DNA from: an uncultured Chloroflexia bacterium
Lineage (GTDB): Bacteria; Chloroflexota; Limnocylindria; Limnocylindrales; CSP1-4
Assembly (NCBI GenBank): GCA_963721655.1
Contig: CAVRKH010000012.1
Location: 17,518-81,517 of the forward strand
Direction of reading: 5' to 3'
DNA: 64,000 bases
The notes under the pieces: model-generated
Told to the model about the DNA's origin: nothing
Database searches by the model: none
Seen by the model: only the letters and a program-made list of their open reading frames with translations
Shown: piece after piece, positions 39,915-41,497 of the stretch
Layout: each line of letters opens with the position of its first letter
Numbering within the stretch: position 1 is the stretch's first letter
Position numbers and translations under genes: made by a program

Positions 39915-40121
39915 TCAGAACCGGCGGCGACCGGGCGTGACGACGGCACCGACAACTGCGGCCTTGGCGACCGGCGAGGGACCGGGCGAGACTGCGGCGC
40001 CGACGACGGCGGCCTTGGCGACCGGCGAGGGACCGGGCGAGACGGCGGCGCCGACGACAGCTGCCTTGGCGACGGGGGCGCCGATGACTCCCCTTCCGGC
40101 ACGACGTGGTCCGAGTGGCAT
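39915..40121 (-). CDS. 68-aa peptide built from three 17-aa repeats
   Basis: RBS AGGAG; MPLGPRRAGRGVIGA-(PVAKAAVVGAAVSPGPS)x~3-RRRF; third-position variation between copies. Confidence 0.65.
   Translation of the reverse strand: MPLGPRRAGRGVIGAPVAKAAVVGAAVSPGPSPVAKAAVVGAAVSPGPSPVAKAAVVGAVVTPGRRRF
39936..40075. repeat. Three tandem 51-bp coding repeats
   Basis: GCCTTGGCGAC at 39961, 40012 and 40063. Confidence 0.9.
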
Positions 40122-40122
40122 G

Positions 40123-40590
40123 TCAGACTCCTGCTGGTTCGAGCGCCGCCTCGGCCTCGTCGGCTTCGATCGCGGCGATGAGGGCCTGGATGGGGATGCG
40201 TCCATTCGCGATCAGCTGGCCGCCGGCGCGTCGAATCGCCGACGCAAACGGCGCGGCCCACAGGTTCTCGTAGACGAGGACGCCCGCGATGCTGCCCGGT
40301 TCCATCGCCGCGGCGAGGTTGTCCACGTCCTCTTCGGCCAGGGTCTCCGCCAGCTCCGCCTCGAGGCGGCCCAGCTCACCGAGGTCCTCGAGGTCGCCCA
40401 GCTCCTGGGCCATCACCGTGCCGTCCTCGCCCTTCGCGAGGATCAGGATGTCCATCACCCGGATGATCCCGGCGTCGTGGAGCCTCAGGAGCTCGTCGGC
40501 TCCTTCACCGGTGAAGTTCTGCGCTCCCGCCGGAAACTCGACGATCACGTAGTCGACGGGCCCCAGCTCGTCGAGCGTTCTGTCTGTCAT
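40123..40590 (-). CDS. DUF6325 family protein
   Basis: GPVDYVIVEFP, GIIRVMDIL, VYENLWAAPFA.AIRRAGG.LIA.GRIP. Confidence 0.8.
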   Translation of the reverse strand: MTDRTLDELGPVDYVIVEFPAGAQNFTGEGADELLRLHDAGIIRVMDILILAKGEDGTVMAQELGDLEDLGELGRLEAELAETLAEEDVDNLAAAMEPGSIAGVLVYENLWAAPFASAIRRAGGQLIANGRIPIQALIAAIEADEAEAALEPAGV

Positions 40591-40750
40591 GGTGCCTCCA
40601 ATCGCCGGGCTCGGTGCGAGCCGGCGAAGCAACGGTCGCACGGTCGAGGCCTCACGGCATCATTCGGGATGGGTGATACGCGCGATTGGCCGAGTCGTCG
40701 GCGTGCGCAACCGCGGGCCCGGGAACGTGACCGGCTACCATCGACCGACG

Positions 40751-41497
40751 ATGACCGACCAGCTCTCGCTCCGGCTCGAGCCCGAGCAACCGGTCCTGCC
40801 GGGCTTGCCCGACCTCCGGCCGATGCTGCCGCGGCCCCTCGCCGAGCCATTCGATTCGGACGAGCACCTGTTCCAGCCGTGGTGGGGCGGGCGCCGCGCG
40901 CTGATCTACGTGGGCCCGGCCGACCTGGCCGGGGGCGGGGTCGTCCGCGTCGTTGACGAGGATGGCGCCGACCTCACCCGATATCTGCGCGAGCTGGCCG
41001 GGCTGGCCGTCCGGGTCGATGCCCGCTCGGCGGTACTGGACGGGGAGCTCGTGGTCGTCGATGCGTCGGGGCGCGCGGATCCGGCCGCGATGGCGGCACG
41101 GCTCGAGGGACGCGCGGGACGGGCCGTCGCCTTCCTGGCGCTCGATCTGCTCCACATCGACGGCCGGTCGTTGCTCGGCCAGCCGCTGACCAAGCGGTAC
41201 GAGGCGCTGCGGCGCGTCCTGCGACCCGGCGACGAGGTCGTCGCGGTACCGGCCATCGCAACCGAAGGCCGCGCGCTGTGGGATGCGGTCGCCGCCCAGG
41301 GTCTGGCCGGGGTGCTCGCCCGTCAGCGCGCGAGTCCGTACCTGGCCGGCGTCCGGAGCCGGCTGTGGCGGTTCATCGAAGCACGACCCGGCGCCGTGGC
41401 CGAGACCGCGGAACCGGTCGAAGACGAACCGTCGCGGCCCGCCGCCGCACCGGTGCTCGCGCTCATCGAGCGCCTGCCGCTGGACCTCGAGGACTAG
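40751..41497 (+). CDS. ATP-dependent DNA ligase adenylation-domain homologue, catalytic residues degenerate
   Basis: PMLPRPL..PFDS, VLDGELVV, ALDLLHIDG..L...PL.KR, SPY..G.RS..W; motif I reads QPWWGGRR instead of E.KxDG.R. Confidence 0.85.
   Translation: MTDQLSLRLEPEQPVLPGLPDLRPMLPRPLAEPFDSDEHLFQPWWGGRRALIYVGPADLAGGGVVRVVDEDGADLTRYLRELAGLAVRVDARSAVLDGELVVVDASGRADPAAMAARLEGRAGRAVAFLALDLLHIDGRSLLGQPLTKRYEALRRVLRPGDEVVAVPAIATEGRALWDAVAAQGLAGVLARQRASPYLAGVRSRLWRFIEARPGAVAETAEPVEDEPSRPAAAPVLALIERLPLDLED

Follow-up and report, generated by a model that had tools for sequence, protein, structure and literature searches.

Bacterial NHEJ (non-homologous end joining) is taught as a minimal machine composed of Ku and LigD. 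Here we analyse psiLig, a gene for a lysine-less relative of the ligase (LIG) domain of LigD, which lies in a 64,000-nt stretch of DNA (in full length: "the window") from an uncultured Chloroflexia bacterium (GenBank assembly GCA_963721655.1, contig CAVRKH010000012.1, positions 17,518 to 81,517, forward strand). The organism is known solely from metagenome-assembled genomes. In LigD of Mycobacterium tuberculosis, the lysine that becomes adenylated is K481 (PMC8656161). Stand-alone LIG-only ligases can be encoded together with Ku, as in Streptomyces kuA/ligC/polK (PMC5124664). In eukaryotic NHEJ, DNA ligase IV (Lig4) has a structural role that does not depend on catalysis (PMC11754673, PMC10858965). 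Lysine-less paralogues are mentioned neither in a large NHEJ survey, which counts LIG domains by profile matches only (PMC7719229), nor in a structural review of LigD (PMC8656161), and our full-text literature searches yielded no description of lysine-less or inactive paralogues of bacterial DNA ligases.

Residues ~15–212 of the psiLig protein are the nucleotidyltransferase (adenylation) domain of a LigD-type ATP-dependent ligase. The protein matches PF01068 (Pfam, E 3.3e-12), and its closest relative of solved structure is the ligase domain of M. tuberculosis LigD (1VS0; HMMER against the PDB, E 1e-13, 29% identity). With the NCBIfam model of the NHEJ ligase domain, TIGR02779, it scores 93.2 bits, below the cut-off of 227.75, and all 12 NCBIfam ligase models that match psiLig stay below their own cut-offs. 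Public annotations label psiLig proteins LigD or ATP-dependent DNA ligase. An AlphaFold2 (AF2) model based on a diverse alignment of 77 rows has a predicted local distance difference test score (pLDDT) of 90.6 and a predicted template modelling score (pTM) of 0.83; it replaced an earlier, unusable model from 56 close homologues (pLDDT 52). In the model, residues ~15–212 are folded, and residues 1–12 and 213–248 are disordered. A Foldseek search of the PDB retrieved ATP-dependent ligases exclusively, with 6NHX (M. tuberculosis LigD LIG) at the top (E 6.5e-14, root mean square deviation 2.4 Å, 198 columns). An OB domain is missing, i.e. there is no match to PF04679, and the fold stops at about residue 212, where it gives way to the disordered tail. 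The original prediction, made from the sequence alone, had claimed an adenylation-domain framework with replaced catalytic residues and without an OB domain; the former is confirmed by Pfam, HMMER, AF2 and Foldseek, the latter by the missing PF04679 match and the end of the fold. An exact-sequence look-up of P0001 returned no record.

The gene and its ligase motifs are located as follows.

40751–41497, plus strand: psiLig coding sequence, 248 aa with a TAG stop, from the open reading frame (ORF) and its translation
40871–40897, plus strand: degenerate motif I, FQPWWGGRR (canonical F-E-x-K-W-D-G-x-R), from the alignment to 1VS0/6NHX
41036–41050, plus strand: motif III, LDGEL, kept, with D97, G98 and E99 invariant in 81 orthologues
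41300–41326, plus strand: degenerate motif IV, GLAGVLARQ (canonical G-x-E-G-x-x-A-K), with Glu replaced by Ala186 and Lys by Arg191
41363–41380, plus strand: degenerate motif V, LWRFIE (canonical W-L-K-I-K), with both Lys gone

The ORF is intact, and the codons ttc cag ccg tgg tgg ggc ggg cgc cgc at 40871–40897 encode FQPWWGGRR. This peptide aligns with FEGKWDGYR of 1VS0, which places W44 (40880–40882) at the position of the adenylated Lys and G46 at that of the Asp. GLAGVLARQ aligns with GWEGVIAKR of 1VS0 (HMMER against the PDB), and LWRFIE takes the place of WLKIK in the LigD that is encoded in the same genome. The early readings of FQPWWGGRRA with its codons, of GLAGVLARQ and of WRFIE were therefore correct. 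Besides motif III, the motif IIIa block (DLLxxDGRSLL) is also kept. Within the clade of the window protein (the WGG-type clade, see below), R49 of motif I, D97-G98-E99 and Arg191, Arg202, Arg204 and Arg207 near the pocket are invariant. Judged from its motifs, psiLig is predicted to be a pseudo-enzyme that lacks residues for all three ligation steps.

A word-index protein search gave more than 2,300 matches, the best 120 of which are all ~245–255 aa long and 67–98% identical. Relatives also turned up in a genome scan, in at least 216 species-level genomes; the titles of nearly all of these read Candidatus Limnocylindrales or uncultured Chloroflexia. The psiLig family belongs to the Chloroflexota class Limnocylindria. 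Conservation was quantified for 81 species-level orthologues (80 loci and the window). At the position of the motif I Lys, these contain W (67), S (12), L (1) or A (1), but never K, while W45-G46-G47 and R49 are invariant. The residues are W (118) or S (3) in 121 metagenome cluster representatives, and W, A, S, R, C, V, L, T, N or E in members with 40–55% identity. The position is variable across members and therefore unconstrained. Conservation of Trp in place of Lys had been suggested as a check: the Lys is never retained and selection is purifying, although Trp itself is not fixed. Homologues that retain KxDG, considered originally as a sign of recent decay, were not found, as the Lys is absent from all 81 orthologues and from the distant members as well.

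The possibility that another Lys is adenylated had also been raised. No column of the 81-orthologue alignment contains a conserved Lys (the best column reaches 27/81), and thus a migrated nucleophile is ruled out. The number of Lys per protein is 0–3, with a median of 1. The ratio of nonsynonymous to synonymous substitution rates (dN/dS; Nei-Gojobori, 3,234 pairs) is 0.24 for the whole gene, far from the value near 1 that would have indicated decay. It is 0.20 for the adenylation domain, 0.17 for a C-terminal motif (residues 233–245) and 0.69, i.e. near-neutral, for the linker between the two (210–232). The ORF is intact in 81/81 species genomes. psiLig is conserved under purifying selection, which acts on the domain and on both terminal tails, and is not decaying.

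Both ends of the protein carry conserved peptides, which are separated from each other by the domain and the linker.

40760–40777, plus strand: N-terminal Q4-L-S-L-R-L9, a clamp-binding-type hexapeptide (QLxLxL), in the peptide MTDQLSLRLEPE
41384–41446, plus strand: variable low-complexity disordered linker, residues ~212–232, with a dN/dS of 0.69 and pLDDT 54–74
41450–41482, plus strand: C-terminal peptide P234-V-L-A-L-I-E-R-L-P-L244, followed by an acidic end, in the tail peptide APVLALIERLPLD

The consensus of bacterial clamp-binding motifs is QL[S/D]LF or QxxLF, and the tight-binding hexapeptide of Escherichia coli Hda is QLSLPL (PMC12309361). Across the orthologues, the N-terminus of psiLig reads M-x-D-Q-L-[SAT]-L-[RPS]-L. 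Q4, L5 and L9 are invariant and L7 is found in 79/81. Position 8 is Pro in 23/81, giving QL[SAT]LPL and in some cases exactly QLSLPL, while the window protein has QLSLRL. The AF2 model shows no secondary structure for this segment (pLDDT 64), i.e. the motif is situated in a disordered segment. QLxL is kept in Ku-adjacent relatives at 35% identity, and P0204, a lysine-less, OB-containing sister protein, starts with MPQLSLF. Of the 9,197 window-genome ORFs with 150 aa or more, only one other contains QL[x]L[x][LF] within its first 12 residues. That ORF (QLGLRL) was discarded because it looks like a spurious non-coding frame. From these sequence comparisons, an origin of the N-terminal motif by chance seems unlikely. 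Clamp-type motifs elsewhere in the genome are QLGLF in DinB and QLPLF in an ImuB-like ORF.

The consensus at the other end is P-V-L-A-[LM]-[IL]-x-R-L-P-[LF], with P234, L242 and P243 invariant and R241 in 80/81; the acidic end varies between members. A related tail, RPRLVVLQSLRL, is present on active-type Ku-adjacent ligases of two other Limnocylindria families (f52/f53). Both psiLig tails persist where the identity of the domain falls to 35–42%, and they are kept in the Ku-adjacent clade. Because they are conserved in divergent relatives and modelled as disordered, they have the signature of short linear docking motifs. Originally, both ends had been proposed as clamp-binding motifs. MTDQLSLRL does fit such a motif and is conserved, whereas LPLDLED as a second one did not stand, since the conserved C-terminal element is PVLALIxRLPL. 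Ku is the suspected partner of this peptide.

In a tree of adenylation domains, the WGG-type clade, which includes the window protein (support 96/95), is sister to a WPG-type clade (100/99). P0203 and P0204, both lysine-less and OB-containing, are placed at the base of the latter. WPG-type proteins likewise lack an OB domain; their N-terminus carries EQL[PD]L and their C-terminus LALILRLPL. In sequence they are more degenerate, with LDGTL as motif III. The genomic context was analysed in 111 sampled genomes of the class, among them those of the window's own family (f1) and of a sister family (f3). In 35/35 f3 genomes, the WPG-type gene follows Ku directly on the same strand, with a gap of 8 nt in L100 and L103. 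A WPG-type gene in the order Ku-psiLig-LigD is found in 4/30 f1 genomes (genera g3 and g127), and the remaining 26/30 contain a WGG-type gene away from Ku. Every Ku-positive genome of the two families has exactly one psiLig type. Additional LIG ORFs of 356–400 aa in some f1 genomes were considered as a second psiLig and rejected, as they are active-type stand-alone ligases (KWDG, OB domain present). In f52/f53, the slot after Ku is occupied by a LIG that retains KWDG, EG..AK and the OB domain and is apparently active. Many f3 genomes have two Ku genes, one directly upstream of psiLig and a better-scoring one elsewhere, and the Ku-psiLig pair is located 2–4 kb downstream of a Lig1-like 575-aa ligase gene on the same strand (L100–L103).

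In the class sample, psiLig co-occurs with Ku. Ku is present in 65/65 psiLig-bearing genomes of f1 and f3, and psiLig is absent from the Ku-less genomes, i.e. five small f2 genomes, G187, G216 and G226. At the syntenic position of G216, the S9 peptidase and ABC-2 genes that flank psiLig in its relatives enclose a universal-stress-protein gene instead. G290 gives no information, since its contig breaks off at the locus.

We regard psiLig as a pseudo-enzyme that branched off from the LigD LIG family and has a new architecture. We propose, giving the idea about an even chance, that it is a non-catalytic accessory or adaptor of Ku/LigD end joining, with the N-terminal tail on the sliding clamp and the C-terminal tail on a second partner. 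The QLSLRL peptide would dock on the beta sliding clamp and PVLALIxRLPL on the second partner, most likely Ku or LigD. The folded domain may still recognise a DNA nick or a 5′-phosphate end, since it keeps the scaffold of a ligase and, near what was the active site, several Arg. psiLig would then recruit the end-joining machinery to broken DNA that is marked by the clamp, or it would stabilise a repair complex without sealing. We infer binding to DNA, to the clamp and to Ku, as well as the direction of the effect on end joining. Its most economical history would begin with a Ku-associated stand-alone ligase with docking tails, which would have lost the OB domain and catalysis, would have been kept as a non-catalytic partner and, in most of the window's family, would have been relocated away from Ku. 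A non-catalytic ligase-fold adaptor in repair had been the original prediction as well, and the Ku operons of the sister clade together with the co-loss with Ku appear to support it.

Several observations weigh against this proposal. Neither Ku nor LigD was found within 8 kb of psiLig in any of the 81 WGG-type loci, window included. Because the WGG-type gene is monocistronic and away from Ku and LigD, its connection with end joining is drawn from the sister clade and from phyletic co-occurrence. Support for grouping the WGG- and WPG-type clades together is weak (79/93), and nearly all Limnocylindria carry Ku, so that informative losses are few. Ku-adjacent members of genus g3 read PLPLEF and have lost the Gln of the clamp motif. 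The window protein has Leu and not Phe at the probable adenine-stacking position 131, and the Ku-adjacent sister clade no longer has the Glu of motif III (LDGTL, LDATL), which makes nucleotide binding doubtful.

Some of these points would also fit a repair factor that is independent of the clamp, with both tails bound to end-joining partners (Ku, LigD POL) and QLxLxL as a mere mimic. The operon context points to Ku and LigD, not to DnaN, the g3 members do without the Gln, and related Leu/Pro-rich peptides are found at the N- and C-termini of other Ku-adjacent LIG proteins. However, some orthologues contain the tight clamp binder QLSLPL in exact form, the corresponding place in P0204 is taken by the canonical QLSLF, and comparable N-terminal motifs are essentially absent from the other ORFs of the genome, so that we regard clamp independence as unlikely. 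Somewhat less probable again is a ligand sensor or regulator, the crippled pocket of which binds ATP, NAD+ or a 5′-phosphate and signals or sequesters; it could, for example, be a competitive decoy that keeps Ku or DNA ends from LigD during replication. An intact fold in the AF2 model and the invariance of R49, D97-G98-E99 and the four pocket Arg in the WGG clade are compatible with such a role. In contrast, the freely variable Lys position, the loss of the motif IV Glu and of both motif V Lys, and the missing motif III Glu in the sister clade argue against it.

A function that is unrelated to DNA and tied to the neighbouring genes is very improbable, although the neighbourhood is well conserved. 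The 81 loci share a block of DeoC, a divergent S9 peptidase (69/81, median distance 82 bp), psiLig and a convergent ABC-2 exporter (79/81), and the divergent arrangement with the peptidase holds even for members with 42% identity. But this block is an ordinary case of conserved synteny, to which DeoC, DUF971 and PPK also belong, the peptidase is replaced by a DUF6325 gene in the window, the genes are not co-transcribed, and the sister clade is found in Ku operons. A working ligase or nucleotidyltransferase with a non-canonical nucleophile, as the automatic annotations (LigD, ATP-dependent DNA ligase) would have it, is effectively excluded, and so is a decaying pseudogene. The former is at odds with the missing conserved Lys (some members possibly have none), the missing OB domain and scores far below the family cut-offs, the latter with a dN/dS of ~0.2 and intact ORFs in 81/81 genomes. 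The adaptor of end joining is thus the reading that we prefer.

The N-terminal position of the clamp-type motif depends on the choice of the start codon. A longer ORF from 40589 is also open, but 81/81 orthologues share the ATG at 40751 as their start, and a conserved box lies ahead of it.

40736–40741, plus strand: TACCAT box, putative −10 element of a leaderless or near-leaderless mRNA, 9 nt before the ATG

TACCAT is found 8–11 nt 5′ of the ATG in 79/81 loci. Because its spacing to the ATG is not a multiple of three, the box is non-coding. The conserved ATG and the upstream box argue that MTDQLSLRL is the real N-terminus. TACCAT is probably the −10 element of a leaderless or near-leaderless psiLig mRNA; a scan for sigma-70 promoter and terminator consensus sequences found nothing. 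The extended box CTACCATCG (window 40735–40743) was considered as a mark of a repair regulon. It occurs 14 times genome-wide, with ~17 occurrences expected from the composition, and also precedes starts of unrelated ORFs, and therefore the idea was rejected in favour of a generic −10/leaderless element. Independently of psiLig, CTACCATCG, which contains TACCAT and is of the TANNNT type of −10 elements, is located 4–7 nt before the start codons of several ORFs of the window genome, and this placement suggests that leaderless transcripts may be frequent in the organism.

In the window, psiLig is monocistronic, with a DUF6325 gene divergent upstream and genes for an ABC-2 permease and its ATPase convergent downstream, followed by a P-type ATPase and DUF971. 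The DUF6325 gene (40123–40641, minus strand) replaces the divergent S9 peptidase of 720–760 aa (Tricorn-N/PD40) here and at one other locus. A 51-bp tandem repeat (39920–40073; three copies, 89% matches), one frame of which encodes repeated PVAKAAVVGAAVSPGPS units, is placed between the start of deoC (39839, minus strand) and the stop of the DUF6325 gene (40123).

The window genome also encodes real ligases, i.e. a Lig1-like one on contig C2, a LigC-like one on C10, a PE-LIG-POL LigD that immediately follows Ku on C21 and an additional stand-alone LIG on C13. The C13 gene (C13:21359-22364, L086/L090, genome G000, outside the window) is of the active type (FEVKWDGFRVEA) and split over two frames. 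Its orthologues in G239 and G230 (L113, L114) are intact, and the split is either a frameshift or an assembly error.

Lysine-less ligase-like proteins were also noticed elsewhere. The window genome contains a second, different ORF of this kind outside the window (L089; G000 C11:76627-77571, minus strand), which matches PF01068 with E 1.7e-6 and has VEPQWAGLR as motif I, IFDGFL as motif III and GFLGLSFRA as motif IV. A partial identical copy is located at C1:175979-176512. A weak match in the Ku-less G187 was considered as a decayed psiLig and rejected, because it is an orthologue (L110) of L089; this family therefore does not track Ku. Lysine-less, OB-bearing LigD-LIG proteins are L094:1504-2502, P0178, P0208, P0217, P0231, P0235 and P0240, as well as P0243, P0246, P0257, P0260 and P0269. 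They are scattered among active ones in the tree, which argues for several independent losses of the Lys. Many lysine-less OB-bearing LIG proteins have Leu/Pro-rich N- and C-terminal peptides (LPQLPF, PTVLSALPI, LPRLPL). The gene of another lysine-less LIG, P0192, overlaps the stop of a Ku gene.

If our reading is correct, psiLig would add a non-enzymatic component to bacterial NHEJ and provide the first connection of the sliding clamp with this pathway, and part of the "multiple LigD/LigC" counts of genomes would be pseudo-enzymes. A more far-reaching idea, which we put forward tentatively and consider doubtful, is that NHEJ of Limnocylindria, and perhaps of other soil bacteria, includes a third, dead ligase paralogue that bridges the clamp and Ku/LigD. 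A bridging psiLig would tie break repair to DNA that is marked by the clamp, for instance collapsed forks or gaps. Lysine-less LIG proteins that arose independently next to Ku (e.g. P0192) would suggest repeated evolution of a dead-ligase scaffold of NHEJ, in parallel to the structural role of Lig4 in eukaryotes.

Among the described systems, the LIG domain of LigD (M. tuberculosis Rv0938; 1VS0, 6NHX, 6NHZ) is closest to psiLig. The fold and the order of motifs (I-III-IIIa-IV-V) are the same, psiLig is phylogenetically derived from the LigD LIG group, and motif III and DLLxxDGRSLL are retained. In contrast to LigD LIG, psiLig lacks the Lys nucleophile, the Asp of motif I, the Glu and Lys of motif IV, the Lys of motif V and the OB domain. 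It is not fused to POL or PE, and it carries two conserved terminal peptides. Ligases of the LigC type and the LIG proteins of f52/f53 (L106/L107) are likewise single-domain-family proteins next to Ku, and the f52/f53 tail is related to that of psiLig. A Ku-adjacent stand-alone LIG is probably the ancestor type. However, these proteins keep KWDG, EG..AK and the OB domain and are presumably active, whereas psiLig has lost all of these.

ImuB is a catalytically dead Y-family polymerase of the ImuA'-ImuB-DnaE2 mutasome, which has a clamp-binding motif and acts as an adaptor. Like ImuB, psiLig would be a pseudo-enzyme that combines the fold of a repair enzyme with a clamp-type motif. The analogy with inactive ImuB in the original prediction seems apt, given the QLPLF of the ImuB-like protein in the window genome, but the fold and the pathway are different. 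With Hda, psiLig shares a hexapeptide at the extreme N-terminus, which in psiLig is part of a disordered segment. Hda, an AAA+ regulator of DnaA, otherwise has no relation to psiLig in fold or function. Lig4 offers a parallel for the proposed role, i.e. a ligase body that supports an end-joining complex without catalysis of its own. In contrast to the naturally active Lig4, psiLig would be constitutively dead, is devoid of an OB domain and coexists with an active LigD.

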